Shown: positions 8,611 to 63,000 of the stretch, one piece after another | Numbering within the stretch: the stretch's first letter is position 1 | Layout of the letters: each line of letters starts with the position of its first letter | NCBI GenBank assembly: GCA_964355855.1 | Contig: CAYHFD010000001.1 | Location: forward strand, 9,921 to 73,920 | Direction of reading: 5' to 3' | DNA length: 64,000 nucleotides | DNA from: an uncultured Candidatus Saccharibacteria bacterium | GTDB lineage: Bacteria; Patescibacteriota; Minisyncoccia; Phycocordibacterales; XYD1-FULL-46-19 | Position numbers and translations under genes: made by a program | The notes under the pieces: generated by a model | What the model saw: only the letters and a program-made list of their open reading frames with translations | Databases searched by the model: none | What the model was told of the DNA's origin: nothing

Positions 8611-8624
8611 AACGAAAAACTACA

Positions 8625-8948
8625 ATGAGATTACCCCTTACATATTTTCTGTTACTACCGATTCTTTTTCTCTGTATCGCTTTTGGTGGTAAATACGCCA
8701 TTTTTGTTTTCCTCACACTAGTTTTTCTATTATTTTTAATAGAGGTTAAGGTGAAATATGGAACTTTTACAAAAAAGAACATTATAAAATTCTTTAATAC
8801 CCCAATTATACAAAAAGGTTTTGACGGCGAGACAGTTATCGATAAAAGTCCAAGGGTTTCAATGTTGACAGGTATATTACTTATCTTGGGTGGTACGATA
8901 TTGGTTGTAATCATCCTAACCCTCATTTTCTGGTTTCTTCTTGCGTAG
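8625..8948 (+). CDS. small membrane protein, hypothetical
   Basis: Three hydrophobic segments; start chosen at MRLPLTYF just after the tRNA; weak evidence. Confidence 0.3.
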   Translation: MRLPLTYFLLLPILFLCIAFGGKYAIFVFLTLVFLLFLIEVKVKYGTFTKKNIIKFFNTPIIQKGFDGETVIDKSPRVSMLTGILLILGGTILVVIILTLIFWFLLA

Positions 8949-9122
8949 TTCAAATCCTTAGGTTTTATTTCTGCCTATGGATCAATGAGAAGCATTGTAG
9001 TTTTTTTGCGTTTGTGTGTGCAATAGAGGAGTCGAAGCCAGATTGAAATATTTTATGAGCTTTTGAAATAAAATATCCAATATGAGTACTGGTCGTGTAG
9101 GGACCGAACCCTCTACCACCCG

Positions 9123-9614
9123 CTATTTCAAATAACTATCAAACCAGACCGCGTGGCAGGTGTAGCCACCCGGGTTTTTCTGCAGATAATCTTGATGGTG
9201 GGCTTCCGCTGGGTAGAATTTAGTCAACGGCTCCAAAGTGGTCACCACCGGCCCCGACCAGCGACCAGACTTGTTGACGATATCAATAAATTTTTCGGCT
9301 TCACTTTTTTCTTCATCACTCCCATAAAATATCGCCGAGCGGTAGGAACTGCCTTTATCATTTCCCTGTTGATTTAAAGTGGTTGGATTATGCACCCGAA
9401 AAAAGAAGTCGAGTAAGTTTTTATACGAAGTCTGGGTCAGGTCATATTCTATCTCCACTGCTTCAGCGTGGCCGGTGTGGTTTTGATAGGTCGGATTGGC
9501 CACACTACCTCCGGTATAACCTACTTCAGTATTAATAACCCCTGGTTCTTTTCGAATCAGTTCCTCTAGGCCCCAAAAGCAACCACCCGCCAAAACTATT
9601 TTTTTATTATTCAT
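9123..9614 (-). CDS. msrA: peptide methionine sulfoxide reductase A
   Basis: IVLAGGCFWGLEE catalytic motif. Confidence 0.9.
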   Translation of the reverse strand: MNNKKIVLAGGCFWGLEELIRKEPGVINTEVGYTGGSVANPTYQNHTGHAEAVEIEYDLTQTSYKNLLDFFFRVHNPTTLNQQGNDKGSSYRSAIFYGSDEEKSEAEKFIDIVNKSGRWSGPVVTTLEPLTKFYPAEAHHQDYLQKNPGGYTCHAVWFDSYLK

Positions 9615-9638
9615 ATTATTTACCCATTTCCTTATTCT

Positions 9639-9662
9639 CCTATTCGCGCGAATTAGAGATAT
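9639..9662 (-). repeat. 24-bp motif copy 1 (CCTATTCGCGCGAATTAGAGATAT)
   Basis: Exact copy; supplies last codons and stop of msrB; 26 nt upstream of msrA ATG. Confidence 0.9.
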
Positions 9663-10038
9663 CTTTGACCGAGATATTCTTAGTCACACCCGCTATAAAT
9701 TTCAGCGAAATCGAGTTCACACAATGGCGGATATTTTTGGCGGTTAGATTTTCACCGGTAAACACGTGGCCGAGGTGACCACCACACTTGGCGCAGGTAA
9801 TCTCGGTCCGCCGGCCATCGGCATCAACACTTTTTATTACCGCTCCCGCAATTTCATCATCAAAACTGGGCCAGCCACAATGTGACTCAAATTTATCTTG
9901 CGAATTATAAAGTGGCGCTTCACACTGCCGGCACACATACACCCCCGTGGCTTTATTATTAACATATTCACCCGTAAAAGCCGGCTCAGTGCCTTTATCA
10001 ATGATGACGTGTTTTTCTTGGGAGGTGAGGGGGTGCAT
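9640..10038 (-). CDS. msrB: peptide methionine sulfoxide reductase B (with repeat-derived C-terminal tail)
   Basis: CxxC...CxxC zinc site and HLGHVF / RHCVNS motifs; last 8 codons (DISNSRE-stop) lie inside the 24-bp repeat. Confidence 0.9.
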
Positions 10039-10089
10039 GGTTCGAATTATGTTAGGTTGGTGGAATTAAAAGATAATAATTAAAACTTT

Positions 10090-10614
10090 TTACCTTAATT
10101 CGTAAGTATTAAATTCAATCGGGCACTCTCCAAGTTCTCTACGGAGACAGTTGATAAATTTACTCTGAGCTTGAGTAAATTTATCAAGACTTTCTGTCCT
10201 ATTCTGCTTGATATGATTTATGAGCATTTCTATCATTATTTTAAGCTCTTCGTAAGCAAAAGATGAAATGAAAAGACTTGAACCTAAATAGGTATCTTGA
10301 AATTGACTGATTAGTCTCTTTTTTTCATCTTCATTTAAATTTTTTTCTAATATAAAAACCCTAATAGCTTTCAATAATTCCCAATATTGTTCTAATTTTT
10401 TATCGTATCGTTTACGTTGCATCTCTAAATAGTGAGTACAAAAATAACCAAAAACGATCGTCGTACCCGCCATTGACGCACTTAAAATATCCATACTTAC
10501 ATCCAATCGATAGAAAATGATAAAAAAGATTAGCTCAAAAGAAATCCAAATCACAAAGGACCATATTAATCCCCTCGTTGTTCTTGGAAAAATTTGGTAG
10601 GCAATAATATTCAT
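10090..10614 (-). CDS. hypothetical membrane protein (very AT-rich gene)
   Basis: N-terminal TM helices, no recognised domain. Confidence 0.35.
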   Translation of the reverse strand: MNIIAYQIFPRTTRGLIWSFVIWISFELIFFIIFYRLDVSMDILSASMAGTTIVFGYFCTHYLEMQRKRYDKKLEQYWELLKAIRVFILEKNLNEDEKKRLISQFQDTYLGSSLFISSFAYEELKIMIEMLINHIKQNRTESLDKFTQAQSKFINCLRRELGECPIEFNTYELR

Positions 10615-10637
10615 AAATCGTTTCTATTGGTGTTTAA

Positions 10638-11537
10638 TCAGTATGTATGCATAATATTCCAAATATTTTGCACAAGACCTTGTGTTTCGTAATTACCAAC
10701 AGTAAGCCATGTCGGTACTCCTAAAACACATAACCCATTTTCCCCTTTAGATAATGCAATCCCCCCAGAGTTTCCACTGTCAACTTTCGCTGATATAAAA
10801 TAGTTAGAGTCCGGCAAAGAAGGCTCTGCCCCTTCATAGCCACTGATAATACCATTTGTCACTATTTGTGTAATAGCACTTCGTTGCGCGTAGGCGGGGT
10901 AACCAATAATTACTACAGGAGATCCTGTACTTATTGAAGTATCACACTTTTGTAGTGTGGACATGGAATAATTTAATTTAGTTTTATCGGTGTTATTACT
11001 GTCCAGGAGTGGAAGAAGAGCAATATCAGTATAATTATTCCATCTTTTAGATTGAGATGGAAAAACGTAATATATCCCTGGTGGACCACCATTTATATTA
11101 AAAGCTGGAATTTCACAGTATCCAGTTGAATATGTAGATCTTTCTACCACATGCTGGTTGGTCAATACAAAATACTCACTTCCAATCTTCCATAAAGTGC
11201 CTGAACCAAAAGAATCACCGCAATCAACTTGTACTATGCCGTATAAATATGGGGTTAATTCACTTGAAGTAATTGCAACAGAAATTTTCTGTATCTGAAC
11301 TTTCTCTTCTAAAACTTCGGATATCCTTTCCTGTTTCTCTGTCTTTTGTTTGAGTGATTCAATTTCTAACTTTGCTTCGTCTAGCATTTTTTGTGTCTTT
11401 TCCTCTTTTTTAAATCTTTCTATTTGATAATTTTTATATTGTTTATAGCCAAAATAACCGATATTGGCTAAAACAGTAAAGCTAAGAATGATCGAGATAA
11501 ATATTAGTATTTGTCTATATTTTATTTGTTTCTTCAT
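10638..11537 (-). CDS. membrane-anchored trypsin-like serine protease
   Basis: N-terminal TM + coiled coil; GSGTLWKIG..FVLTNQHVV (His), DIALLPL (Asp), DSGNSGG (Ser) catalytic-triad contexts. Confidence 0.6.
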   Translation of the reverse strand: MKKQIKYRQILIFISIILSFTVLANIGYFGYKQYKNYQIERFKKEEKTQKMLDEAKLEIESLKQKTEKQERISEVLEEKVQIQKISVAITSSELTPYLYGIVQVDCGDSFGSGTLWKIGSEYFVLTNQHVVERSTYSTGYCEIPAFNINGGPPGIYYVFPSQSKRWNNYTDIALLPLLDSNNTDKTKLNYSMSTLQKCDTSISTGSPVVIIGYPAYAQRSAITQIVTNGIISGYEGAEPSLPDSNYFISAKVDSGNSGGIALSKGENGLCVLGVPTWLTVGNYETQGLVQNIWNIMHTY

Positions 11538-11712
11538 TTTTTTAAAAATAGTCCAAAATTATTATTAGAAGTATAATATATCACAAGAAAAATTAAAGTA
11601 GGAGTAAAAACTATCCTATATTGAATACTTTGCTATTCCTCGACTGTGCTTTGGCCCCTCGAGCTAATTAAATTAGGCCTGGGTTTCCATTGGTTGAACC
11701 TATATATTAAAA

Positions 11713-12825
11713 TTACCTCCCCTTCCAACCAACGGCTTCTTGGATATTTTTATAGCCATTTTGACGTAAAATTTTAGCCAAACCCAAATTAATCTCGCTC
11801 ACCAGCTGGGGGCCCTCAAACACCAGACCAGTAATAAGTTGCACCAGCGAGGCCCCAAAACCAATTTTATGATAAGCATCAGTGGCCGAAAAAATACCAC
11901 CGCAACCAATTATTACATATTTACCTTGCGTTTTTTTATACACTTGGCTAATCGCTCGGTCAGCTAGCTCCGCCACCACTTTACCACTCATCCCACCAGT
12001 CGGTGGCACATTCAGGTCATGCACCCAAACATTATTTCTATCTTTCGTCAAATTGGCCACAATAAAGCCGGCGATGGGATAGCGGGTCGCCACCGCCACC
12101 ACGCCGTCAATAATGGCCGGTGTCATATCGGGACTAATTTTGATAAACACCGGTTTGGTGGTCGGGATGGTAAACAATCGTTTTAGAAGCTCATCAAGCG
12201 CCACTGGGTCCCAAAACAGGCGATCATTGGTTTGGTTGGGACAGCTAATATTGATGGTAAAATAGTCCCCCGTGTCGGCCAAAGTGCTAAAAGACTGAGC
12301 AAAATCCGCAACCGCCGTAGCCACGGTTGAGGTAGAGCTATCATTGGTGAAAGCCAGATTGGTACCAACGGGAATGGTATTTTTTTTGATTCTTTGTTTA
12401 ATCACCTCCACCCCGTCATTTTTAAGACCAAAATTTACTACCAGCCCTTTCGACTGGGGCAAGCGCCACAAATGCCGACCCGGGTTACCCTGGCTCGGCT
12501 TGGCGGTGATCGAGCCCACTTCCGTAAAACCAAAACCAACCGCTGGTAAGAAATTTAAAAGCTGACCATTTTTATCAAACCCACCGGCGAGCCCCACCGG
12601 ATTTTTGAAATATAAATTACCAATTTGTTGTCCAAGGATTGGGTCGGAATAGGAAAACAGCAATCGCCCTAAAAATCGCGTCACGCCAAATTTACCCAGC
12701 CAGTGTCCAATCATCACCGTCTGGTCGTGGACAAATTCCGGGTCAAAACAAAACAAGATGGGCTTGATTAAGTAAACATACCCAAAATGTAAAATCTGAT
12801 TGCGAAGGTAAATTAAGGTGGTCAT
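11713..12825 (-). CDS. pyrD: dihydroorotate dehydrogenase (quinone, class 2)
   Basis: GLAGGFDKNG, GFGFTEVGSIT, NFGLKNDG, IISCPN motifs; N-terminal membrane-association extension. Confidence 0.85.
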   Translation of the reverse strand: MTTLIYLRNQILHFGYVYLIKPILFCFDPEFVHDQTVMIGHWLGKFGVTRFLGRLLFSYSDPILGQQIGNLYFKNPVGLAGGFDKNGQLLNFLPAVGFGFTEVGSITAKPSQGNPGRHLWRLPQSKGLVVNFGLKNDGVEVIKQRIKKNTIPVGTNLAFTNDSSTSTVATAVADFAQSFSTLADTGDYFTINISCPNQTNDRLFWDPVALDELLKRLFTIPTTKPVFIKISPDMTPAIIDGVVAVATRYPIAGFIVANLTKDRNNVWVHDLNVPPTGGMSGKVVAELADRAISQVYKKTQGKYVIIGCGGIFSATDAYHKIGFGASLVQLITGLVFEGPQLVSEINLGLAKILRQNGYKNIQEAVGWKGR

Positions 12826-12974
12826 ATTTTTTTTATTTCTGTTTAAGGGTATTAATAGGTCGGACCTTGGATTCTTTAGCAGATAATGCGGCCAAGGGGG
12901 ATAACTTTGACTTTTTATATAAAGGGGATATACTTATTTTGTCTTAGGGTTTTACCATAAACTTTAAGGGTATT

Positions 12975-13012
12975 ACATCCAAGGGTAGCCCTCCGCAAGG
13001 AGGGCTATTTTG
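12975..13012 (+). terminator. plus-strand intrinsic terminator with no annotated upstream plus-strand gene
   Basis: GGGTAGCCCTCC-GCAA-GGAGGGCTA followed by TTTTGTTTTT. Confidence 0.45.
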
Positions 13013-13015
13013 TTT

Positions 13016-13588
13016 TTACGACTTATCCTCTTTATGTTTAAGATCTCTACCCCACACATCTTCCTTCATGTTTAATACATCGAAGTATCCATCACCTCCT
13101 GTTTTTAACTCATGCGACACATTGTTTTTAGAAGAAAAAATAAAAACCTTTTTACCACCATTACGCAAATAATTGACTAAGGCCAGAAAATCAGAATCAC
13201 CGGTAAAAAGAATTACTGTATCATATTTTTTACAAAAATGAATAGCGTCTATAGTCATTTCCACGTCCATATTGCCTTTTTCTTGTATTGAATCACCTAG
13301 ATCACTATGTTGAATTATTCTTTTAAGCTCCTTTTTACGTACTGTAAATCCCAACCCTTTCTTAAGATAGGTAAAAAACTTATGCTTTCCATCTTGACTT
13401 TGTTCCCGAGTTCCTTCTTTTGGATAGGCCGTGTAATAAAATATCTGAAGTTCTGAAGCATTAAATTTTAATTTTAAAAAATACTTTAATTTTTCATAGT
13501 CAAACATCCTACCTTTTGCCTTTTGGGCTTCCCATAGGTTAGAGGCATCAATAAATGCAAATACAATTTTTTCAACTTCTTTAGACAT
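13016..13588 (-). CDS. NYN-domain (LabA/DUF88-like) protein
   Basis: IVFAFIDASNLW ... VILFTGDSDFLALVNYLRNGGKKVFIFS, characteristic of NYN ribonuclease-like fold. Confidence 0.65.
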   Translation of the reverse strand: MSKEVEKIVFAFIDASNLWEAQKAKGRMFDYEKLKYFLKLKFNASELQIFYYTAYPKEGTREQSQDGKHKFFTYLKKGLGFTVRKKELKRIIQHSDLGDSIQEKGNMDVEMTIDAIHFCKKYDTVILFTGDSDFLALVNYLRNGGKKVFIFSSKNNVSHELKTGGDGYFDVLNMKEDVWGRDLKHKEDKS

Positions 13589-13633
13589 AATATATATTTT
13601 ACATTAATCCTCCCTTTTCTGTTTGGGTAATCC

Positions 13634-13681
13634 CCAAGGACCGTCCTTGGAAAAATTTTGATGTGGTGTAATTTTGCTTGG
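13634..13681. repeat. left inverted repeat (IR-A) of ~5 kb island
   Basis: CCAAGGACCGTCCTTGGAAAAATTTTGATGTGGTGTAATTTTGCTTGG matches reverse complement of 18631-18678 with about 5 mismatches. Confidence 0.8.
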
Positions 13682-13835
13682 CGGGCTACTCGAGTTAAAT
13701 ACCCCTAAGGCAAGGTGCCACAAGGGTATTCTAGCACTAATCAGCCCTCCTTTTCGAGACCTCAGAGTCGGGACTATAATATTGTAAATCCGATACTTAA
13801 AAAGATTCCTCTTGATACGCCACCCCTTATTGCGA

Positions 13836-14618
13836 TTAATTCGTTAATTCATTCCAATACTCAATTAATTCCTGTTCGTTAGTTCTGGATCGATCTTTGG
13901 TTTGGGGCAAGACATCACCTTTATTCCACAGCTGATAACCGACAGAAAATACGAGATTAACAAGTCGAACATAAGCATTAAACCTATCCTTTAAATTGTC
14001 CGCCTTAGTATACCAGGCGAAAGCACCATAGAAATCAACGTCATTTTCCTTCAGATATTTGATAGCTGTTTTCTCCCCTCTCCATAAAATATCTCTGAAG
14101 ACAAAATAGCCAGTGAATACTTCCGAAACACTATAGAGTAGCCGCACTTCAAGCGCGTCGTGATATATTGGATCGCCCGACTCAAAGTAGCGATCATTGG
14201 CGACAAAGTTATAATTGATTTTTTGCCAAAGCAAATCCTTTTCTGATTGCGGTATGACAATCTTTTTATTTAGCTCCGTAATTTTTTCTTTCAACCTACT
14301 TAACTTACCCGATTTATCAAACTGGATTACCGACTTTGTCAGCCAGTTCACAAATATCGCGTCCATGGCATGGCCAGGAAATTCCTTGCTCGTCTCTATT
14401 CGCTTGAGGTCGTCATGATCGAAAAAATAAATATCGGCAAATTTATCATCAATCCAAGTATAAAGAGACACCAATTCATGTTTGTGCTTATTGAGAATTA
14501 TAACGAGGTCTATGTCACTATATGATTTGTTTTTTTCATCCTGAGATCCTGTGAGGAATACTACATCCACATTTTCATGCGATTTAAGCTTTTTAATTAT
14601 ATGGGCTAAGGTTGTCAT
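13836..14618 (-). CDS. Pol-beta superfamily nucleotidyltransferase with C-terminal helical domain (KNTase/LinB-like architecture)
   Basis: LTGSQDEKNKSYSDIDLVII = GS...DxD nucleotidyltransferase motif; ~260 aa. Confidence 0.55.
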   Translation of the reverse strand: MTTLAHIIKKLKSHENVDVVFLTGSQDEKNKSYSDIDLVIILNKHKHELVSLYTWIDDKFADIYFFDHDDLKRIETSKEFPGHAMDAIFVNWLTKSVIQFDKSGKLSRLKEKITELNKKIVIPQSEKDLLWQKINYNFVANDRYFESGDPIYHDALEVRLLYSVSEVFTGYFVFRDILWRGEKTAIKYLKENDVDFYGAFAWYTKADNLKDRFNAYVRLVNLVFSVGYQLWNKGDVLPQTKDRSRTNEQELIEYWNELTN

Positions 14619-14718
14619 AAATTTAGGTAATTACTTATGTATTACTTTAGCAAAATCCAAGATAGATAAAAGAGTTTCCTTTATGCTTATTTTCATAATT
14701 TTATCACTTTTTTTCTTA

Positions 14719-14874
14719 TCAAAAATAGTCTTTTAGTTCCACGGCATCGTCTTCATCAAGACCTTCTTCATCCATAATTTCTTTAACCTGCTCGGCTTCT
14801 TCCATATCTAAGCCGTGATTTTGAGCGATTTCGGCAATGGCTTTAATTTCATCTGGGTCTTTATCTTCAAGCAT
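14719..14874 (-). CDS. small acidic protein (51 aa), hypothetical
   Basis: Hand-translated: MLEDKDPDEIKAIAEIAQNHGLDMEEAEQVKEIMDEEGLDEDDAVELKDYF; below ORF-track size cut-off. Confidence 0.25.
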   Translation of the reverse strand: MLEDKDPDEIKAIAEIAQNHGLDMEEAEQVKEIMDEEGLDEDDAVELKDYF

Positions 14875-14951
14875 GGTTATATTGTATATAGAACCAATAG
14901 TAAATCAAATTTGTAATAAATAGATCGGACCTATAATAATTCTTAAATGGC

Positions 14952-15927
14952 GGCTGACCTGCTCCGTAGAAAACACCTAACCCCAGACAATGGTTACATT
15001 GTGGACGAACAATCGAAGCATCATCTCACGACACTGCGACCAATATGACCGGGCTCGCAAGAACAAACCAAGATTGCTTTAATCATTGAGTTCACTGTTT
15101 CCCCTTGCCACCGCTGGCCGTAAAGAACCTTGTTGAAATGAGTGGCCATAATTTTCCGCCACTTGCCACTTGGAAGTTTGTCAGTTCGTCTGCCAATCCT
15201 CGGTGGGATAATTGTCCGAATGTTTTTCTCGCGAGCAAAGACATGTGAATGTTCGCTGTCATAACCAGCATCAGCCGTTAGGATCTTTAGGTGAACATTT
15301 TTTTCGGCTTCTTTCACTGCTTTTTCAAAATGAACAATATCAGGATATGGACCACGGGATGGCACTCCCGCTAGGACGAGATGGGTATGGCAATCAGAGA
15401 CAATACCAACCTTTGGATAGCGAGTATATGTTGTCAATTGGTACTTTTCTTCTCCTTTAGCTCTTCTTTTCACAAAATAAGTACTAATATGGTGCGATTC
15501 GAAGCCGGTGCCATCAATAGCCGAGAGTTGGATATTTTTTTGCATAATTTTTCTCTGAACCGCAAGAGCGAGAATTTCTTTAATGAGTTTGTCTAAGGTA
15601 TCTTTTTTGGTTAGCCGATAGGCGGCTTTTTGGAGGGTGGTGAAGTGTGGAATTTCGTTTAATTCGAGTATTTTCCTTAGATCGCTGGAGTCCTGCAATA
15701 TTTCTTCGATTCCGCGATAATCAGTAGTAAAAAATTCTTTCAGCACTAAGCAGGCGACTAGTTGATGTTGAGTAAACTTCTTGGGACTTTTGAGATGCCG
15801 AAATGGTGGTAATGCTCGCTTGGCGGTGGCGTAGGCAACCACCGCAATAGCGTTAGGTGATTTTGATGTTTTTATTACCCAAAGTATATCATGGGCTGTC
15901 TATGTTTTCTACGGAGCAGGGCTGACC
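14952..15927 (-). mobile_element. IS4/IS5-like insertion sequence with 17-bp terminal IRs and 8-bp target-site duplication
   Basis: CTGCTCCGTAGAAAACA at 14960-14976 and its reverse complement at 15903-15919, each flanked by direct GGCTGACC (14952-14959; 15920-15927). Confidence 0.75.
15021..15842 (-). CDS. DDE transposase (IS4/IS5-like)
   Basis: IDGTGFESHH ... ILTADAGYDSEHSHVFAREKNIRTIIPP catalytic DDE context. Confidence 0.85.
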   Translation of the reverse strand: MVAYATAKRALPPFRHLKSPKKFTQHQLVACLVLKEFFTTDYRGIEEILQDSSDLRKILELNEIPHFTTLQKAAYRLTKKDTLDKLIKEILALAVQRKIMQKNIQLSAIDGTGFESHHISTYFVKRRAKGEEKYQLTTYTRYPKVGIVSDCHTHLVLAGVPSRGPYPDIVHFEKAVKEAEKNVHLKILTADAGYDSEHSHVFAREKNIRTIIPPRIGRRTDKLPSGKWRKIMATHFNKVLYGQRWQGETVNSMIKAILVCSCEPGHIGRSVVR

Positions 15928-15987
15928 CAATTTCTGAAATAGTGGCTGATTTCATTATCTACCACATTATCCATTTCTAGAAGCTGA

Positions 15988-16191
15988 TTACATCCCTGAC
16001 CACTCCTTTTCACACTGTGCGCAACGATTATTGCCAGTATGTTCAAAAATATCAGTAAACTTGTTTGGCTGATATATTTTTTCATCTTCATTCCAGAAAA
16101 ATTCGTCATCTATAATTGTTTCTACTAACTTGCGTTCACAACCACAAAATTGACAAGAATGTTTTGGAAAAATTATGATTTCTTCATCCAT
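15988..16191 (-). CDS. small zinc-ribbon protein (CxxC...CxxC)
   Basis: CQFCGCERK ... CAQCEKEW. Confidence 0.4.
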   Translation of the reverse strand: MDEEIIIFPKHSCQFCGCERKLVETIIDDEFFWNEDEKIYQPNKFTDIFEHTGNNRCAQCEKEWSGM

Positions 16192-16226
16192 ATTCTGATC
16201 ATTGATCGAATCTAGAAGTAAGTCAA

Positions 16227-16994
16227 CTACTTTAATCGGTAGACGCCATCACCAGCGAATTCAAGATAGCCCTTATCTCTCAAGAATTGTAATTGCTGTC
16301 TGATTTTCGGTTTTATATTTTTGTTTTCAGGATGAATGACGGACAAATCTTGCTCAAAGACATACATGTCTTGCAGGGTAAACTCTTTTTTGTTAAGAAA
16401 ATCTATACAATTCATGATATCCAAAATCCAACCTTTTACATCAGCTTTTTTAACTTGTTTGAGAAATACTGTTTTCTGCCATTTTTCCAATACATCTTTT
16501 TTATATAGTTCTTTCCCGTTCTCAATATAAAAAATTTGTCCTGCTTTTGGTATTTTAGAAAAAAGTATGTTTGAACCGACCCAACCAGCTCGTCTAGCAC
16601 TTTCTGCGAGTGGTTTTCTTTGTTCGATAATTTCGGATACAAAAAAGTGTTTTGGTACAACAAAAAAATTATTTACATCCCACATCTCAACCATATAGCC
16701 CATGAAAAAGAAATTTGGTTTTTGAGGTGAATTAATTCTCTTTATCATCTGAGAATAAGCACCCGCAGAAACCTTTTTGCCCATCTTACCTTTTTTGGAT
16801 TTCAGTTCAAAATCTTCCGCACATTTTTTACAATAAAAATCTGCAACAGGCTTGTTGTTGTCATAATTGTAAATATCATTGCCACAGCTTGGGCAATAAA
16901 TTTCATTAAGAACCCAAGCCTCACTCAACACTCTAGCTTTTTGAGAATAACTTGTGTAATTGTTAGCTAATTTTGTGTCAAAATTTAAGTTCAT
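16227..16994 (-). CDS. DpnI-like (Dam-replacing family) methyl-directed type IIM restriction endonuclease
   Basis: Co-linear resemblance to R.DpnI as I recall it: SYSQKARVLSEAWVLNEIYCPSCGN, PVADFYCKKCAEDFELKSKKG, PNFFFMGY, KPLAESARRAGWVGSNI, C-terminal winged-helix IRQQLQFLRDKGYLEF. Confidence 0.75.
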   Translation of the reverse strand: MNLNFDTKLANNYTSYSQKARVLSEAWVLNEIYCPSCGNDIYNYDNNKPVADFYCKKCAEDFELKSKKGKMGKKVSAGAYSQMIKRINSPQKPNFFFMGYMVEMWDVNNFFVVPKHFFVSEIIEQRKPLAESARRAGWVGSNILFSKIPKAGQIFYIENGKELYKKDVLEKWQKTVFLKQVKKADVKGWILDIMNCIDFLNKKEFTLQDMYVFEQDLSVIHPENKNIKPKIRQQLQFLRDKGYLEFAGDGVYRLK

Positions 16995-16997
16995 AAA

Positions 16998-17840
16998 TTA
17001 TGCCCCCAGTTTGTCTGGTTTCTTCAAGCTCTTTTTTTCATCAGATTTTAACTTCCTCTCAATTTTTTTTATGTCTTCTTCCGCCGGTAATTTTTCAGGA
17101 GTAATTCCTCGACTCAAAAGTGTTCTTCGGACACTTCTATTGTTTGTAATATGTTCTTCGGAAATAGATTGTTCACTTCTCAAGTTTTTACTTTTTGAAT
17201 TAAAAATAGTGATCTCTGTTGCAAAATCCTTCGCTTTTAGAATTATTGTTGGTTGAAAATCAGCAAGCGCACGACCACTAGGAACACCGAGCCGATTTTT
17301 CATTTCTTGAGTTGTATACCCAAATAATGCTTTATCTCCCTTACTTCGTATGAGTGCAAAATTTTTATCACTCCCCGTTTGTTGAAAAATAACACCTGAC
17401 AACTCTTTTTCTGTCTCTGTCAATTTTTGCCGAGCGTTTAGTCTTTCAAATTCTTGTATTCGTTTCTCAATAATTTCAAATTTTCTTGTTTGCACCGCAA
17501 AGTAATTTTGAGCAAATGCAATTTCTTCTTTTCTTGGATCGCCATTTTGAGCAATTAGGTAGCAGGCATACCGAGTAAGCATGATATCTGGAACCTCCTT
17601 TTGCGCACCTTTTGGCATTTGGATCGTTTTCCCGACGTCGGCAAAATGATCATTTACACTGTGACCCGTTACCTCACAAGCAGTTTTTGCCTTTGAGATA
17701 ACAGAGATGAAATTATCCCATTTTGTATAACCCAATAACTGTTGTAAATCACGGGCAAGCCAAAATTCAACACCTTCGCTAGATCTATTGGCATAAGATT
17801 CAAAATTACTTATAAGCGATTTAATAATTTCTATTTTCAT
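16998..17840 (-). CDS. DinD-like (DNA-damage-inducible protein D family, Bro-N-like) protein
   Basis: GVEFWLARDLQQLLGY..W.NF, TRYACYLIAQNGDPRK, FAQNYFAVQTR closely parallel E. coli DinD blocks. Confidence 0.7.
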   Translation of the reverse strand: MKIEIIKSLISNFESYANRSSEGVEFWLARDLQQLLGYTKWDNFISVISKAKTACEVTGHSVNDHFADVGKTIQMPKGAQKEVPDIMLTRYACYLIAQNGDPRKEEIAFAQNYFAVQTRKFEIIEKRIQEFERLNARQKLTETEKELSGVIFQQTGSDKNFALIRSKGDKALFGYTTQEMKNRLGVPSGRALADFQPTIILKAKDFATEITIFNSKSKNLRSEQSISEEHITNNRSVRRTLLSRGITPEKLPAEEDIKKIERKLKSDEKKSLKKPDKLGA

Positions 17841-17879
17841 AAGTCTATTTTAACAATTCATAACTCAAAACACCAAGCG

Positions 17880-18113
17880 CTTTGGCAATATTGGTAATGG
17901 TCGAAAGTGTAGGTGATACATAGGTCGGACCCATGGAAATGGTGACCCTCACAGCCTGGGAAACCCCCACCCGCCATCGCAAGCTCAGGCGTTGCGGGGC
18001 AGGCACGGTTTTCCGACGAGCTTCGCTCTGCCTTCCTCCACGGGAAAACAGGTGTTTTCCCGACCCCTTTCCCCTGTAGGGTCACAGTTTTTTCACTGTG
18101 TTTTAAAAAACTG
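17880..18113 (-). ncRNA. GC-rich structured element G (homolog of 27480-27702), immediately 3' of tRNA-Glu
   Basis: GC-rich in AT-rich genome; shared blocks CCTGGGAAACCC, GGTTTTCC, CTCCACGGGA.A.CAGGTGTT.TCC with element R; 20-bp perfect inverted repeat 18074-18124 includes the tRNA 3' end. Confidence 0.4.
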
Positions 18114-18185
18114 TGACCCTACAGAGAATCGAACTCTGATTACCGCCTTGAAAAGGCGATGTCCTAACCGTTAGACGATAGGGCC
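18114..18185 (-). tRNA. tRNA-Glu (anticodon TTC)
   Basis: GGCCCTATCGTCTAACGGTTAGGACATCGCCTTTTCAAGGCGGTAATCAGAGTTCGATTCTCTGTAGGGTCA folds as cloverleaf; loop TTTTCAA. Confidence 0.85.
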
Positions 18186-18542
18186 AATATTCTATATTTT
18201 AAAACTATCTATTATATTTACCAATATTTATTAGGAACATCGCCTTTACTATTTAATGTGAAAAGGCTTACCCTATTACCTTGTAAACATCAGCAATTTC
18301 TCGTCTGTCAGCGAGAACCGGATAAAAGGTAAAGTAGTTTACCTTTTATTCCAATAACCGTTTCTTGCCCGCCGAAGCCTTGGCGAAGGTGGGGACGATA
18401 GGGCCCTAAATCCACTTTTGGCGAATCGGGCGAACAGTTTCAAAGGAACTGTTTTAGCCAAAAACCGACCAAAAACGAACACGCCTAATATAACATTTTT
18501 TTGAAAAAAGCCAAGAGTTAGGGTAGGATGTAGTAGTATCTT

Positions 18543-18633
18543 GGAAGGGTACCAAAGCGGTCATAATGGCACCGATTCGAAATCGGTTGAGGGCGTAAGT
18601 CCTACAAGGGTTCGAATCCCTTCCCTTCCGCCA
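18543..18633 (+). tRNA. tRNA-Ser (anticodon CGA), long variable arm, CCA encoded
   Basis: Acceptor GGAAGGG/CCCTTCC, anticodon stem ACCGA/TCGGT loop TTCGAAA, variable arm TGAGGGCGTAAGTCCTAC, T-arm AAGGG-TTCGAAT-CCCTT. Confidence 0.9.
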
Positions 18634-18678
18634 AACAAAATTACAACACACTAAAATTTTTCCAAGGACGGTCCTTGG
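18631..18678. repeat. right inverted repeat (IR-B) of ~5 kb island, begins at CCA of tRNA-Ser
   Basis: CCAAACAAAATTACAACACACTAAAATTTTTCCAAGGACGGTCCTTGG; reverse complement matches 13634-13681; similarity extends to CCGCCA of the tRNA 3' end. Confidence 0.8.
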
Positions 18679-18687
18679 TAAACTACT

Positions 18688-19092
18688 ATGAACATCTTCG
18701 AAAAAGTAAAATCTCTAAACTTTCCGACCGGCCAATATGTCGTGGTTGGTAGTGGTATACTAGAAGCAAAAGGTATTAGAGAAACTCATGATGTTGATGT
18801 AGTGGTCACTCCCGAGCTATTTGAAAAATGCAAAACAGAAGGTTGGGAACAGGTTCCATGGACTTATGAAAAAATCGACCAGATTTACTTAAAGAAAGGA
18901 GAATTTGAGGTGTACCTAGACGTAAATTGCAGAGATTTTAATCCAACTTTTAGTGAACTTATACAAAGAGCCGAGACTATCGATGATATAACTTTTGCCT
19001 CGTTACAAGATACAATTAATTTTAAAAGGGCTTACAATAAACCCAAGCATTTGGCTGATCTAAAACTTATTGAAAAATACTTACAAAAATAA
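18688..19092 (+). CDS. minimal nucleotidyltransferase-fold protein (MNT-like), hypothetical
   Basis: VVVGSGILEAKGIRETHDVDVVV resembles GS..DxD NTase core; 134 aa. Confidence 0.4.
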   Translation: MNIFEKVKSLNFPTGQYVVVGSGILEAKGIRETHDVDVVVTPELFEKCKTEGWEQVPWTYEKIDQIYLKKGEFEVYLDVNCRDFNPTFSELIQRAETIDDITFASLQDTINFKRAYNKPKHLADLKLIEKYLQK

Positions 19093-19169
19093 ATTCTCAT
19101 GGGTCCAACCTATTTATTCTCTTTTTAGATTTTAGACAAATCATTTATTTAATTTTATTATATTAGGAT

Positions 19170-19709
19170 ATGAAAAATTTTAACGAAATTGAAAAGAGAA
19201 AAACCCCAGAGCAAGAAAAACTAGAAGACATAACCGATTATGTTAGAGAAAATAAAATTAGTGGTACAGAATTAAGAATAGCCCATGAAATAGCTTTGGG
19301 TATCTCCCCCGAAGAAAGCGGTCGAACAGAAGAAATTAGACAAGAGGTTAGAGATTTGGGTGATAAAATAGAAGAACATACTAAAAATGGCCTACCTATA
19401 AACCTGGTGGCAGAATTTATGCTGAAGGTAGAAGAATATGATTTGGCAGATCAAAGTTATTTTAATCTGGTTGACGACCTGCCTATTACCGACAAAGAAA
19501 AGAAAATCTTGTACTCGGTCGTGACAGACAAAAGGGTTGGGATTATTACATTTTGGGACCGTCACGCCAATTCAGTGGTCGCTTCTATAGAAATTCCACA
19601 AGAAGCTGAAAGGGAAGAGGTCCTACCAAAAGATATTGCTATGGATCTTATTAAAATAATACAAAGACTAAAGGGTTATAAAAAATTAGAAGTTGAATTT
19701 ATATCTTAG
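19170..19709 (+). CDS. hypothetical protein
   Basis: ORF with good length and acidic composition; no recognised motif. Confidence 0.35.
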   Translation: MKNFNEIEKRKTPEQEKLEDITDYVRENKISGTELRIAHEIALGISPEESGRTEEIRQEVRDLGDKIEEHTKNGLPINLVAEFMLKVEEYDLADQSYFNLVDDLPITDKEKKILYSVVTDKRVGIITFWDRHANSVVASIEIPQEAEREEVLPKDIAMDLIKIIQRLKGYKKLEVEFIS

Positions 19710-19747
19710 GATAGGAATATCGCTATGTCTATGCTTAAATAGCAATC

Positions 19748-20920
19748 ATGATTATCCTCGCCATCGAGACTTCCTGTGACGAAACTGCAATCAGTATTGT
19801 GAAAGCCGAGGGTGATTTAATATCGCCAAATTTTGAAGTGCTTGCCCATATTGTGTCCTCGCAGGTTGCCTTGCATGCCACTTGGGGTGGGGTGGTACCC
19901 AACCTCGCCCGGCGCGAACATATTGCCAATCTTATCCCCGTTTTAGAAGAAGCTCTGACTAAAGCCCAGCTCTACACCGAACGTGAACACCCCGAATTAT
20001 CAAACACTGAGTGTTTGATAATTCGGGAAATTTTGGAACGAGAAGAAGGTCTAGCTGAAAACATTATTACCTTCCTGTCGGAAATTCAGATTCCGAATAT
20101 TGACCTGATCGCCGTTACCGCCGGCCCCGGCCTTGAGCCCGCCCTGTGGGCTGGCATCAACTTTGCTCGCGCCCTAGCTACGGCTTGGATGAAACCACTC
20201 GTACCGGTCAACCATATGGAGGGACATATCGTCTCGGTTCTTGCAGACGGAGAAAGCACTAAATCCAAAAACCGAAATTTGAAACAAATAGAATTCCCGG
20301 CGGTGGCCCTGTTGGTGTCTGGGGGCCACACCGAGCTAGTTTTAGTGAAAGCGTGGGGCGAGTACCAGCGACTCGGCGAAACCCGTGACGACGCCGTGGG
20401 TGAAGCTTTTGACAAAGTCGCCCGCCTCATTGGCCTACCTTACCCAGGCGGACCCGAGATTTCTAAATTAGCCCAAGTCGCCCGCGCCCAAAACCTGTCT
20501 GGTGATTGGTCCCTCCCCCGCCCCATGAAAAATTCTGGCGACTATGACTTTTCTTTTTCTGGTATCAAAACGGCGGTTCGTTACGCGGTTGAAAAAAAAG
20601 GAGAATTGACTAACGAAAACAAATTGACCCTTGCCCGCGAATTTGAAGATGCGGTAGTGGAAGTACTGGTCGCCAAAGCAATGTCGGCCTGCAATGAACA
20701 CGGCGCTTCTACTCTCATTGTCGGCGGTGGCGTTATTGCCAACCAATATCTCCGTGCCCAACTAGAAAAAATATGCACGGAAAAAGGAATCAACCTTCTC
20801 CTGCCAACCCTCGAAACTTCCACCGACAATGCCACCATGATCGCGATAGCGGCCTTTTTTCACCAAAACGAAAGCGCGGGCGCGGATGAAATCCGCGCCC
20901 GAGGCAATCTGAAACTCTAA
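19748..20920 (+). CDS. tsaD: tRNA N6-adenosine threonylcarbamoyltransferase
   Basis: MIILAIETSCDETAISIV, VSGGHTEL, GIPYPGGP-type blocks of Kae1/TsaD. Confidence 0.9.
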   Translation: MIILAIETSCDETAISIVKAEGDLISPNFEVLAHIVSSQVALHATWGGVVPNLARREHIANLIPVLEEALTKAQLYTEREHPELSNTECLIIREILEREEGLAENIITFLSEIQIPNIDLIAVTAGPGLEPALWAGINFARALATAWMKPLVPVNHMEGHIVSVLADGESTKSKNRNLKQIEFPAVALLVSGGHTELVLVKAWGEYQRLGETRDDAVGEAFDKVARLIGLPYPGGPEISKLAQVARAQNLSGDWSLPRPMKNSGDYDFSFSGIKTAVRYAVEKKGELTNENKLTLAREFEDAVVEVLVAKAMSACNEHGASTLIVGGGVIANQYLRAQLEKICTEKGINLLLPTLETSTDNATMIAIAAFFHQNESAGADEIRARGNLKL

Positions 20921-25026: not shown

Positions 25027-25391
25027 TGCTTGGGGGCGGGTTCGAACCGCCGACCCTTCGCTCTTCCAGAGCGTTTGGACTATATCATCATCCGTTCTGC
25101 TAATAAGCAGAGTTAGGAGGCAGGCGCTTCCCCTCAACTACGCTCGGGGTAAACCCTAAGCTAATCAAGAGTACTCCCTTTCGGGATAGTCTCTACACCT
25201 TCCGAGCACCACTTTTGAATTCTAGAATATTCTAAAAACCAAAAGTGGTGCTCGGCTTGGCTCGGGATTGTCCAAAAAATTAATCTTGGGTGTCCCCCGA
25301 ATTCACCTACTTTTTCGATCCACTTTACAATAGAAAGGCCCGAAGTTTTTTAGGGTCCAGGCGAATGCTCTACCAACTGAGCTACCCAAGC
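25027..25391 (-). tRNA. tRNA-Phe (inferred anticodon GAA) interrupted by a ~282-nt group-I-like intron in the anticodon loop
   Basis: 5' exon 25359-25391: GCTTGGGTAGCTCAGTTGGTAGAGCATTCGCCT; 3' exon 25027-25076: GAAGAGCGAAGGGTCGGCGGTTCGAACCCGCCCCCAAGCA; halves form perfect acceptor (GCTTGGG/CCCAAGC), anticodon (TTCGC/GCGAA) and T stems. Confidence 0.75.
25077..25358 (-). ncRNA. group I intron (self-splicing ribozyme candidate) within tRNA-Phe
   Basis: 5' exon ends in U, intron ends in G; contains GAGACTATCCCGAAAGGGAGTACTC (P7/GAAA-tetraloop-like) and GATGATATAGTCC (P7') reminiscent of the Tetrahymena/cyanobacterial cores. Confidence 0.65.
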
Positions 25392-35813: not shown

Positions 35814-35820
35814 CGATATA

Positions 35821-36270
35821 ATTGCCTTTTGTTTATAAGCCGAATTCTGTACCGAGCACCACTTCTGACACCCACATTCTTATTAGAAAACACTAAGTAA
35901 GTGTAAATTGATTTGCTAGTGAAAGTTAGACAGTCAGTAGCAGAAGTGGTGCTCGGCGATAGCCATTTATCTGGGATGACTGTCGCCAGCCACCTCAAGC
36001 GGCACAAACCAGTGCAAAGCACTGGAGTACGACCTTGCATTCGGGTAGGTATTTTGCCGTTTCAATCTTCAGGTTTCCCTGAAGCTTCACCCCAAAGGGT
36101 GCCTTTGCCTCTCGGCTAGGGCGTCACTGCTCTCAACCCTCGGATTGCTCCGGACAGGCGTTACCTGCTACCTTGTTCCACCATCTAAAGATAGTGGGAA
36201 TGTTCGGACTTTCCTCTATCAGCCCGCCCAATCGGGCAAACTGACAGTAGCTATCCAACAAAAGGCAACC
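35821..36270 (-). ncRNA. rnpB: RNase P RNA (bacterial type A-like)
   Basis: Minus-strand: GAGGAAAGUCCGAAC (P4 5' strand), GGUAACGCCUG, GGGUGAAGC, ACAGAAUUCGGCUUAUA (P4 3' strand); P1 GGUUGCCUUUUGUU pairs with AACAAAAGGCAAUU. Confidence 0.8.
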
Positions 36271-57249: not shown

Positions 57250-57470
57250 TAAAGTTAATTAAACCACTTCTCGCCCCGTAGGAAGCTTGGCTTTCCTACT
57301 GGGGTGGTCCACACTTGTCCCGTAGCCAGCGTACTCGCTGTGGTACCGGGATGGGCAATAATAGCGATGTTACGAATTTCGGTCATTGTAGAAATAATTA
57401 TTGTATTAGCGACCCGCCCGCAACGCCTAAGCTTGCGATGACGGGCGGGTGTTACGAATTTCTGTCATAA
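57250..57470 (-). promoter_or_regulatory. bipA leader with two degenerate upstream copies of the first ~7-11 codons, each preceded by a GC-rich hairpin
   Basis: Minus-strand ATGACTGAGATACGTAATATCGCCATTATTGCCC (57207-57240) recurs as ATGACCGAAATTCGTAACATCGCTATTATTGCCC (57352-57386) and ATGACAGAAATTCGTAAC (57451-57468); hairpins at 57274-57304 and 57414-57450. Confidence 0.5.
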
Positions 57471-61300: not shown

Positions 61301-61349
61301 CAACCACCACCTTTTCTTTTTCCCTTTTTATTTCTATTTTTTCTATTCC

Positions 61350-61373
61350 CCTATTCGCGCGAATTAGAGATAT
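61350..61373 (-). repeat. 24-bp motif copy 2
   Basis: Exact copy; supplies last codons and stop of ArsR-like gene. Confidence 0.9.
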
Positions 61374-61635
61374 GTTTAGAAACGTATTGAACAATAGGAT
61401 GACGATCCGGCGACAGCGAATACCACATTTCCAAACCCCGCTGCTTTTTTTCCACAATATCAGCCCCGTAAAGCACTGCCAAATGTTTAGAGGTGGCTTT
61501 GAAAGACAAGTTGATTTTTTCGGCCAACTCACTTACTGTCGCCTCTTTTTCTCGCCCTAAATATTTGATCAGCGCCAGCCGCCGCCCATTGGCCAGTGCT
61601 TTCAACACCCGCTCTAACTCCTTAATATTTTTCAT
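61351..61635 (-). CDS. ArsR/SmtB-family transcriptional regulator (C-terminus supplied by 24-bp repeat)
   Basis: RRLALIKYL...ATVSELAEKINLSFKATSKHLAVLYGADIV winged HTH; ends HISNSRE-stop inside repeat. Confidence 0.8.
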   Translation of the reverse strand: MKNIKELERVLKALANGRRLALIKYLGREKEATVSELAEKINLSFKATSKHLAVLYGADIVEKKQRGLEMWYSLSPDRHPIVQYVSKHISNSRE

Positions 61636-62905: not shown

Positions 62906-62976
62906 GTTTTTATTTTACCCCAGCTTAGCCCTTATCTAAAACCCCACAAAAATATTTTCACTATTAGCTTTATTCT

Positions 62977-63000
62977 CCTATTCGCGCGAATTAGAGATAT
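62977..63000 (-). repeat. 24-bp motif copy 4
   Basis: Exact copy with same 7-nt extension as copy 1; ~70 nt upstream of TfoX_N gene ATG. Confidence 0.9.

Follow-up and report, generated by a model that had tools for sequence, protein, structure and literature searches.

A duplicated palindrome-containing cassette in a variable tRNA hotspot of a CPR genome: candidate junctions of a proposed single, now fixed inversion

The window analysed here, a stretch of 64,000 nucleotides from a Vogelbacteria-like (candidate-phylum) genome, contains two inverted copies of a short non-coding cassette that bracket a 4.9-kb block within a variable tRNA hotspot. With about even confidence, we read these duplicated leader/operator cassettes as the junctions of a single, now fixed inversion of that block. 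Each cassette copy precedes an accessory gene, within its upstream or leader sequence: on the left the NYN gene, which a promoter-like 62-nt element would feed, and on the right the MNT-like nucleotidyltransferase gene, which would be fed from the tRNA-Ser unit of transcription. Given their opposite orientation, the copies most likely acted as the junctions of a chromosomal inversion; alternatively, they may have arisen at the junctions. That inversion, probably old, would have swapped the upstream unit (tRNA-Ser or 62-nt element) facing each outward gene; the arrangement is now fixed in the assemblies compared, and the block is not a mobile unit. The features of the locus, in window coordinates, are:

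8611-19747, no strand: real variable interval from tRNA-Val to TsaD, delimited by comparison with relatives
13016-13588, minus strand: NYN-domain (LabA-like) gene, immediately beyond the left arm
13634-13684, no strand: left arm, comprising the palindrome (13634-13650), an A5T4 spacer, the GATGTGGTGTAAT box and TTTGCTTGGCGG
13681-13742, minus strand: 62-nt conserved non-coding element adjoining the inner edge of the left arm and containing the extended -10-like TGCTAGAAT
13836-14618, minus strand: 260-aa Pol-beta-superfamily nucleotidyltransferase (Polbeta/NTP_transf_2 match)
14719-14874, minus strand: 51-aa acidic ORF without family match
14958-15920, minus strand: IS5-family insertion sequence, DDE transposase ORF at 15021-15842
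15988-16191, minus strand: 67-aa Cys-rich (zinc-ribbon-like) ORF without family match
16227-16994, minus strand: DpnI-like methyl-directed type II restriction endonuclease (DpnI and DpnI_C domains; PADLOC methyl-directed type II REase)
16998-17840, minus strand: DinD (DNA-damage-inducible protein D, Bro-N domain; PADLOC candidate PDC-S13)
17940-18073, no strand: GC-rich hairpin element, present again at window 57417-57453 and at 16077-16165 of the related contig L020
18113-18185, minus strand: tRNA-Glu(UUC), a core gene divergent from tRNA-Ser
18543-18633, plus strand: tRNA-Ser(CGA), a core gene kept in relatives, its last 6 nt forming the start of the right arm
18628-18678, no strand: right arm, starting with the CCGCCA 3' end of tRNA-Ser and ending in the palindrome (18662-18678)
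18688-19092, plus strand: 134-aa MNT/DUF6036-like putative nucleotidyltransferase gene, immediately beyond the right arm

A repeat search of the window returned the two arms as a 51-nt inverted repeat with 47/51 positions matched (92% complementary) and a spacing of 4943 nt, the same feature as the 48-nt arms with about five mismatches of the original prediction. The arms differ from each other at 4 positions and share at most 26 bp without a mismatch, roughly the shortest length on which homologous recombination acts. The outward end of each arm is the 17-nt palindrome CCAAGGACSGTCCTTGG, with a centre of 1-3 nt. This sequence occurs exactly twice in the 64 kb even when three mismatches are allowed (0.09 expected; two occurrences were reached in 0/100 shuffles), and a 33-nt arm pattern is also found twice against an expectation of 0.00, so that the predicted repeat is strongly non-random. 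The right arm does adjoin the 3' end of tRNA-Ser, from which 6 nt only (CCGCCA) of the repeat are derived. Both arms lie upstream of outward-facing genes, as had been proposed, with 9 nt from the palindrome to the ATG of the 134-aa nucleotidyltransferase-like gene (18688) and 45 nt to that of the NYN gene (13588). The predicted gene content was likewise confirmed for the NYN protein, the Pol-beta nucleotidyltransferase, the IS5-family transposase, the DpnI-like enzyme, DinD (equivalog match of 362 bits, cut-off 242), tRNA-Glu and tRNA-Ser.

These arms are not the borders of a discrete island. Terminal inverted repeats are indeed present at both ends (51-nt arms, 47/51), one arm adjoins a tRNA 3' end, and the cargo is of a defence or accessory type (DpnI-like, DinD, nucleotidyltransferase, IS) that was not found in the loci of relatives by tblastn or blastn, all of which would fit a composite or foldback transposon with the arms as its terminal inverted repeats, or a tRNA-targeted genomic island whose att sites had turned inverted. 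We nevertheless hold such an origin to be most improbable, and a mobile island, an ordinary finding in any case, is largely refuted. No target-site duplication was found outside the arms in any register (flanks ...GGGTAATCC and TAAACTACT..., the nucleotides directly outside being TAATCC and TAAACT). The single transposase gene is that of the IS5-family element, of which there is no second copy in the window; this element ends in 17-nt inverted repeats of its own (CTGCTCCGTAGAAAACA), unrelated to the arms, and is flanked by a separate target duplication, the 7-bp direct repeat GGCTGAC. No integrase or invertase of the serine or tyrosine recombinase type was found when all ORFs of the block were searched against Pfam and NCBIfam, nor among the precomputed Pfam matches for ~10 kb on each side. 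The arms are not att-type repeats, because only 6 nt are tRNA-derived and the repeats are inverted rather than direct copies of the tRNA 3' part. An arm-bounded unit, whether an empty site or a second copy, was not found in the genome, metagenome or viral collections searched with the arm pattern, which gave 0 matches in viral contigs and one match, in an unrelated context, in 596 Gb of genomes. A phage origin was rejected, the arm and the 62-nt element both lacking matches in viral contigs. Neither the composite-element nor the inverted-att explanation of the original prediction is supported; speaking against both are also the two tRNA genes inside the arms, which are core genes present in relatives, and the variable DNA beyond the arms.

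The 4.9-kb block is instead part of a larger tRNA-anchored hotspot, running from tRNA-Val to TsaD, in which different accessory genes have been gained in each lineage. The distance from TrxB to TsaD is 11.3 kb in the window versus 5.5 kb in the relative L023, and lineage-specific DNA extends well past both arms (about 8.6-19.7 kb). None of the lineage-specific window ORFs between tRNA-Val and TsaD was found by tblastn in the L020 or L023 loci. Several of these ORFs lie outside the arms: to the left a 174-aa ORF and the genes for a trypsin-like protease, DHODH and NYN, to the right the MNT-like gene and a 179-aa ORF. For MsrA and a 124-aa ORF there was no match either. The window interval and L023 (TrxB, tRNA-Val, MsrB ... 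tRNA-Ser, tRNA-Glu ... TsaD) have in common only MsrB, the sole shared protein gene, and the tRNA pair. L020 carries tRNA-Glu, tRNA-Ser and TsaD in that order, with the tRNA pair oriented as in the window, and its locus has other R-M genes. Both relatives match the window's tRNA-Glu gene at 100% identity across 74 nt (18112-18185). The earlier claim that everything between the arms was accessory or tRNA stands for the accessory genes, but the tRNA-Glu/tRNA-Ser pair is conserved core rather than island cargo. As in tRNA-targeted genomic and defence islands, the hotspot is tRNA-anchored and holds lineage-specific defence-type cargo; unlike them, it has no integrase and no direct att repeats, its tRNAs lie inside the repeat pair, and variable DNA continues beyond.

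In each of the three lineages, variable DNA starts directly at the 3' end of tRNA-Ser. L020 and L023 carry a 470-bp tRNA module in opposite orientations (89.6% identity), and one of its breakpoints falls no more than 6 nt from the 3' end of tRNA-Ser; inversion does occur at this spot in the clade. Around this module, inverted repeats comparable to the arms did not rise above chance level in the relatives. The locus illustrates the turnover of tRNA-anchored hotspots in very small CPR genomes, where accessory and defence genes differ by lineage, rearrangements break precisely at the 3' end of tRNA-Ser and small inversions are recurrent.

Beyond this, the proposed inversion draws on a related contig, L073. 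The 62-nt element is homologous to L073 442-503 (alignment score 47, against 19.1 +/- 2.3 and a maximum of 28 for shuffles), a stretch that precedes, by 32 nt and in the same orientation, a homologue (74% identity) of the right-arm MNT-like gene. The homology stops at GCCCGCC, the exact arm boundary; this heptamer of the left arm is part of the conserved element, and L073 has no cassette between element and gene. Flipping positions 13685-18627 of the window would restore the adjacency of 62-nt element and MNT-like gene seen in L073, and tRNA-Ser on the minus strand would be followed by leftward genes, as in L023. The inversion inference draws on one related contig and on synteny with two relatives only. 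Counting against it are five other contexts of MNT-like homologues and two of NYN homologues with neither element nor cassette, the lack of the cassette in L073, the lack of any contig with the alternative orientation, and the cassette's orientation to its gene, which is opposite in L067, Yonathbacteria and L041. As the tRNA pair of L020 is oriented as in the window, the window orientation could be ancestral. Like inversions by homologous recombination between short inverted repeats (inverted IS copies, rRNA operons, REP-type repeats), the proposed event has a repeat pair bracketing the block, a flip that restores the gene order of a related contig, and a neighbouring tRNA module flipped between sister lineages; it differs in that the arms are of 51 bp with a 26-bp perfect stretch, the relatives are sparse and one orientation is seen today.

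The 62-nt element was also considered as a structured or tRNA-like rod RNA ending in CCA inside the left arm. It folds as a rod hairpin in the window, but the L073 copy neither folds (z = -0.45) nor ends in CCA, and no ARAGORN or Rfam match was obtained; a promoter- or leader-type element is preferred. Candidate compensatory changes between the window and L073 fell in different alignment columns, and two sequences cannot establish covariation.

The present orientation is uniform in the assemblies compared. The left arm is crossed by 9 contigs from 9 samples and the right arm by 8, two contigs spanning both arms, and all are collinear with the window at 99.6-100% identity; the repeat is not an assembly artefact. 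The presence/absence or inversion polymorphism envisaged in the original prediction was not encountered in any assembly compared, a single orientation being found in 17/17 contig crossings from ~10 samples, where assemblies give the majority form. Local GC skew, proposed earlier as a check at the arms, tracks the coding strand in this region and is therefore uninformative for dating an inversion.

These data bear directly on an active invertible switch, in which a recombinase would flip the 4.9-kb block and so alternate the tRNA-Ser unit and the 62-nt element before the NYN and MNT-like genes. Short inverted repeats with a palindromic core do flank the block, as in Hin/hix, Gin/gix, fimS, shufflons and Bacteroides invertible promoters; inversion would exchange promoter units before the outward genes, and the tRNA module differs in orientation between related lineages. 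Unlike those systems, the block has no recombinase gene nearby, carries eight genes and two core tRNAs on its 4.9 kb, shows no orientation heterogeneity in ~10 samples and has a 1-3-nt palindrome centre that is not a typical crossover spacer; moreover, its four arm mismatches are unusual for frequently recombining sites and comparable repeats are absent in relatives. We regard such a switch as highly improbable. Of the invertible segment originally suggested, an inversion-type history is plausible, but neither a recombinase nor orientation polymorphism was found.

The arms are, from sequence comparison, members of a conserved cassette family also present elsewhere in Parcubacteria. The cassette is a conserved non-coding sequence of ~44 bp (17-bp palindrome, A/T spacer, TGTG.T.TA box), and a gapless 44-nt alignment unites the two arms with two copies on the Hainich contig L067, a diverged Yonathbacteria copy (L019/43/46/68) and L041. 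Positions T29, G30, T31, G32, T34, T36 and A37 are invariant, none of them forced by the search pattern. Over the first 42 nt, identity is 39/42 between the arms, 39/42 between the left arm and the first L067 copy and 38/42 between the right arm and that copy; since each arm resembles the L067 copy just as much as it resembles its partner, a recent duplication of one arm from the other need not be assumed. Vogelbacteria-like and Yonathbacteria genomes share this palindrome-containing 44-nt cassette, which is strongly conserved, had no Rfam match and, if it proves an operator, promoter or recombination site, would be among the very few cis-elements known for the CPR radiation.

A possible, though doubtful, alternative is that the arms are a duplicated regulatory cassette only, the operator/leader or promoter modules having become tied independently to two accessory genes and being inverted because those genes diverge, with no inversion ever having occurred. 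In other genomes the cassettes are intergenic, single or tandem, and bound nothing. The similarity of each arm to the L067 copy fits this view, as does the agreement in tRNA-pair orientation between the window and L020. In the alignment, a perfect TGATATAAT stands at the box position of L041, 6 nt before an ATG; the genome to which the window belongs has this arrangement (TGnTANNNT-N6-ATG) at its own genes too, where 4/7 TGnTANNNT-type sites before an ATG have exactly the 6-nt spacing. Duplication of a cassette leaves unexplained, however, the coincidence that the left-arm element is the upstream element of the right-arm gene's homologue in L073, and also the 7 further nt (TTGGCGG) that the arms share past the family consensus. 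In addition, six contexts of MNT-like homologues and two of NYN homologues lack the cassette, as do L020 and L023, so that neither the relatives nor the flanking-gene homologues retain the arms as ordinary promoter regions; a conserved operator of the NYN or MNT-like families was rejected on the same grounds. The single, fixed inversion remains our preferred reading.

A further proposal concerns cassette function and is compatible with inversion: the arms may be inward-facing promoters which, read inward from the palindrome, have TGnTGTAAT ~7 nt before structured sequence and would drive RNA antisense to the NYN leader (left) and tRNA-Ser (right). The aligned box in L041 is a perfect extended -10 before a leaderless-type ATG, a stable hairpin starts 4-7 nt after the box in L067 (twice) and Yonathbacteria, and in both window arms structured sequence starts 8 nt past it. 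In 4/6 copies, however, the hexamer has G at position 2 (TGTAAT), where sigma-70-type promoters almost always have A; the L067 hairpin is terminator-like and lies upstream of the gene's own TTGACT-16-TAAAAT promoter; and the 62-nt element does not fold in L073. We therefore consider this function unlikely. It is very unlikely that the locus is a working 4.9-kb switch, acting by a recombinase in trans or driven by RecA and swapping the tRNA-Ser unit and promoter cassette between the NYN RNase and MNT-like genes, and/or that the cassette is an inward promoter of RNA antisense to tRNA-Ser; either one, if real, would add a kind of regulatory device not described before in CPR bacteria.

As a short, conserved, palindrome-containing intergenic cassette found in several genomes and in either orientation to genes, the element resembles REP/BIME-like elements and regulon operators. 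It differs from them in its low copy number (2 per 64 kb), its conserved asymmetric flank and its absence from Rfam, and no cognate binding protein or REP-associated transposase was identified for it. Rfam covariance models gave no match above noise at E<=10 over 13550-13900 and the two tRNAs only over 17840-18720, and a literature search on the palindrome and on CPR inversions at tRNAs returned nothing relevant. Three other candidates were rejected. The palindrome is not an intrinsic terminator (T5 precedes it on one strand and A5 follows on the other, no U run follows the hairpin, and a terminator scan of the window did not call it), and a link with GGWCC restriction sites was discarded (73 observed, 74.5 expected). 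The third was a DnaA box or origin: the cassette box resembles TTATCCACA, but TTATNCACA occurs once in the window against 2.35 expected, and GC skew has no inflection. The contig L062 carries a perfect version of TTATCCACA.

The inverted repeat is present as first noted, and it is non-random. Its arms (13634-13684 and 18628-18678) are 51 nt long, 92% complementary and 4943 nt apart, with a perfectly identical stretch of 26 bp in common. The palindrome CCAAGGAC(C/G)GTCCTTGG forms the outermost 17 nt of both arms and was found only twice in the 64 kb, even with three mismatches permitted (0.09 expected), while a 33-nt arm pattern gave two matches in the window where none was expected. The gene calls made earlier for the block and its flanks were likewise borne out:

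13016-13588, minus strand: NYN protein (190 aa), start codon at 13588; the left palindrome lies 45 nt upstream
13634-13684: left arm
14951-15927 (including duplication): IS5-family element with transposase; its ends are 17-nt inverted repeats (CTGCTCCGTAGAAAACA), and GGCTGAC stands on each side as a 7-bp direct repeat
Pol-beta-type nucleotidyltransferase (NTase)
51-aa ORF, acidic
67-aa ORF, Cys-rich
DpnI-like enzyme, PADLOC class methyl-directed type II restriction endonuclease
DinD, NCBIfam equivalog (362 bits, cut-off 242)
tRNA-Glu
18543-18633: tRNA-Ser(CGA), whose CCGCCA end is the start of the right arm
18628-18678: right arm
18688, plus strand: start codon of a 134-aa MNT/DUF6036-like protein; the right palindrome lies 9 nt upstream
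19748-20920: TsaD

The NYN protein shares 75-89% identity with more than 100 proteins across CPR lineages (Nomura-, Pace- and Yanofskybacteria), a conservation far above that of TsaD (83% to the nearest relative and ~55% to others), and the gene neighbourhoods of these homologues are unrelated to one another. Such comparisons indicate either unusually strong constraint or frequent transfer.

Exact protein matches assigned the window to a 76.9-kb contig of Hainich aquifer sample Hain_H52 (0.1 um fraction) and were also found on contigs of ~10 other assemblies; all 18 loci compared with the window by BLAST were collinear with it at 99.6-100% identity. Nine contigs cross from the left arm into the interior, eight from the right arm into tRNA-Ser, and two span both arms, so the repeat does not stem from an assembly error. 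Contig breaks concentrate inside the IS (several short-read contigs) and not at the arms. At the consensus level, neither an inverted nor an empty allele was seen among the 18 collinear loci, and an active invertible switch, one of the readings first proposed for these inverted arms, is highly improbable.

The proposals of a composite transposon or a tRNA-targeted island did not hold up. The arms are not bordered by a target duplication; neither an integrase nor an invertase was found in the block or the ~10 kb on either side, and the window holds no second IS. Neither an empty site nor a second copy was encountered anywhere, viral contigs included. The IS5-family element, single-copy in the window, was rejected as the mover of the block since it has its own 17-nt ends and its own GGCTGAC duplication. 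Att-type repeats were discarded because the arms are inverted and their tRNA-derived part amounts to only 6 nt, and an island bounded by the arms because core tRNAs lie inside them and accessory genes outside. We consider a mobile island or transposon most improbable.

By TsaD identity, the closest loci belong to Candidatus Vogelbacteria RIFOXYD1_FULL_44_32 (83%; L020-22) and a Patescibacteria MAG (81%; L023). The former has the order tRNA-Glu(-), tRNA-Ser(+), NTPase, TsaD, with a large restriction-modification system to the left; the latter reads FtsA, FtsZ, TrxB, tRNA-Val, MsrB(-), GrpB(-), a 349-aa ORF(-), tRNA-Ser(-), tRNA-Glu(+), InPase, NTPase, TsaD. Searching with the window ORFs (tblastn) recovered TrxB, MsrB and TsaD in L023, while the lineage-specific ORFs of the window, from the 174-aa ORF through the 179-aa ORF, had no match in either relative's locus, nor did MsrA and the 124-aa ORF. 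The variable region is thus the entire tRNA-Val to TsaD interval, which covers ~8.6-19.7 kb and extends well past both arms. Within the arms, tRNA-Glu is 100% identical to that of the relatives and the intergenic promoter region ~90% identical, and the tRNA-Glu/tRNA-Ser pair is core. Neither the palindrome nor a comparable inverted repeat occurs in L020 or L023.

A 470-bp module comprising a conserved non-coding element, tRNA-Glu, the shared promoter region and tRNA-Ser is inverted between the two relatives (L020 8999-9470 and L023 6115-6584; 89.6% identity), with one breakpoint no more than 6 nt from the tRNA-Ser end and no detectable inverted repeats flanking it in either. Inversion at this place has therefore occurred in the clade without arms. 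Sequence 3' of tRNA-Ser diverges from the first base on in all three lineages. In both relatives an ORF start codon touches or overlaps the final base of tRNA-Ser(CGA) (L020 9376-9470, CCGCCATGAAA; L023 6115-6208, CCGCATGAAA), an arrangement suggesting that the mRNA may be co-transcribed with the tRNA and freed nearly leaderless through tRNA processing.

Each arm holds one copy of a 44-nt non-coding cassette composed of the 17-nt palindrome, an A/T spacer and a TGTG.T.TA box. Scanning 596 Gb of species-representative genomes for AATTTTTCCAAGGANNNTCCTTGG returned a single match, in Candidatus Yonathbacteria, with further in-register identity upstream and no tRNA nearby. A looser pattern run on metagenomes gave 45 loci, mostly unrelated coding or simple-repeat matches; the true relatives, having the asymmetric flank in common, were the Hainich contig L067, where two copies lie 470 nt from each other, the Yonathbacteria locus, present on four contigs, and contig L041. 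An nhmmer profile found no additional copies among the remaining fetched loci. All six copies can be aligned over 44 nt without a gap, and the invariant positions not forced by the search pattern are TGTG at 29-32, T34, T36 and A37. Over the first 42 nt, identities were 39/42 between left and right arms, 39/42 between the left arm and the first L067 copy and 38/42 between the right arm and that copy, so the two arms do not resemble one another more than they do a copy on a different contig. L067 may derive from the same genome as the window, with which its coverage and sampling site would agree. Only the last 7 nt (TTGGCGG) are peculiar to the window pair, and these bases are native at both places, the end of tRNA-Ser and the element beside the left arm.

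This last element lies in a gap of 247 nt that separates the NYN gene from the 260-aa NTase, where the sequence beside the left arm folds as a rod. It is 62 nt long and carries TCGAAA-18-TAGAAT with TG upstream. Contig L073 encodes a homologue (74% identical) of the right-flank MNT-like protein, and 32 nt upstream of that gene, on the same strand, lies a homologue of the 62-nt element (local alignment score 47, against 19.1 +/- 2.3 and a maximum of 28 for shuffles), the homology ending at GCCCGCC, the exact inner edge of the arm. Since the L073 copy does not fold (z = -0.45), the conserved feature is probably a promoter or leader and not an RNA structure. In the window the element and the MNT-like gene stand 5 kb apart on opposite strands, one arm joined to each. 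Flipping 13685-18627 would move the element to just upstream of the MNT-like gene, its position in L073, and the leftward gene array would begin with tRNA-Ser(-), as it does in L023; the arms would then be the crossover sites of an inversion, or have been duplicated at its junctions. For RecA-type recombination, 26 bp is close to the lower length limit. The case for a fixed, one-off event between the arms is moderate, not strong: it draws on a single contig (L073), the tRNA orientation of L020 is that of the window, and no alternative isomer was seen among the collinear contigs. A regulatory duplication without inversion is possible but the less probable account. We regard it as roughly an even call that a conserved intergenic cassette of Parcubacteria, present in two inverted copies upstream of two accessory genes, marks a fixed one-off inversion within a larger tRNA-anchored hotspot. 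The feature is of an ordinary structural kind, its small novelty being the uncharacterised cassette and the recurrent flipping around the tRNA-Ser/tRNA-Glu pair.

As to what the cassette does, no Rfam family matched it, and a terminator was rejected (the hairpin has T5 before it on one strand and A5 after it on the opposite one), as was a conserved operator of the flanking gene families, the cassette being absent from six MNT-like and two NYN homologue contexts. For both L067 copies and for those of Yonathbacteria and L041, it is the box side of the palindrome that faces the closest co-oriented gene, these genes encoding a small coiled-coil protein, a prepilin peptidase and a methyltransferase, whereas in the window arms the palindrome side faces the nearest genes. 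L041 has a perfect TGATATAAT as its box, 6 nt ahead of an ATG. Among extended -10-like sites within 40 nt of the starts of 43 long window ORFs, four of seven lay at exactly 6 nt (TGnTANNNT-N6-ATG), which suggests that leaderless mRNAs are frequent in this organism; taken with the perfect box, this peak makes a promoter reading reasonable for L041. A -10-like hexamer likewise stands 6 nt ahead of DinD and of the 51-aa ORF. Four of the six cassette copies carry TGTAAT, without the A at hexamer position 2 that is usually essential. L067 (1-1226) contains two tandem paralogues of a ~95-aa coiled-coil protein, each preceded by a cassette, a GC-rich terminator-like hairpin and the gene's own TTGACT-16-TAAAAT promoter, with AATTGGGGATAAG direct repeats past the palindrome. 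What would fit these copies best is a symmetric site bound by protein, next to a -10-like box of variable function.

Other elements were noticed around the tRNA pair. A perfect 20-bp hairpin with an 11-nt loop (18074-18124; CTGTAGGGTCACAGTTTTTT / AAAAAACTGTGACCCTACAG) has as one arm the last 12 nt of tRNA-Glu plus 8 nt of trailer, so that the tRNA 3' end has an inverted duplicate immediately downstream, a position taken in the relatives by an ordinary terminator. Beside the ancestral promoter region, at 18398-18409, stands a 12-nt repeat of the tRNA-Glu 5' end (GGCCCTATCGTC, minus strand). The 212 nt separating it from the intact tRNA-Glu, with a TTGGTA-17-TAAAAT promoter-like site, are missing from L020 and L023; 18186-18409 thus appears to be a small insertion, its 12-bp direct repeat falling within the tRNA-Glu 5' end. 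The 64 kb contain four matches to the motif GGTCCRAYCTAT, against 0.72 expected, at 12855-12866(-), 14920-14931(-), 17920-17931(-) and 19102-19113(+), all within 12.8-19.2 kb and 20-80 nt upstream of the starts of DHODH, the 51-aa ORF, DinD and the 179-aa ORF. The motif is similar to the 3' half of the arm palindrome together with the bases downstream (GGTCC-N4-TA) and may be a second local element of operator or promoter type.

A GC-rich hairpin element with core CCCGCCCGCCATCGCAAGCTCAGGCGTTGCGGGCGGG and no Rfam match is found in opposite orientations at 17956-18041 and 57417-57453, and once at a different locus of the Vogelbacteria relative (L020 16077-16165); the 178-nt region folds better than 200 of 200 shuffles (z = -2.7). 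A near-palindromic 30-nt repeat (CTCCTATTCGCGCGAATTAGAG core) lies at 9633-9662, 61344-61377 and 62970-63000, and once in L020 (8635-8672). Rfam also called, at 54 bits, a group I intron (25058-25361(-)) and, at 35820-36266(-), a bacterial RNase P class A RNA, which barely passes at 103 bits against a threshold of 100 and has a large insertion close to its 3' end.
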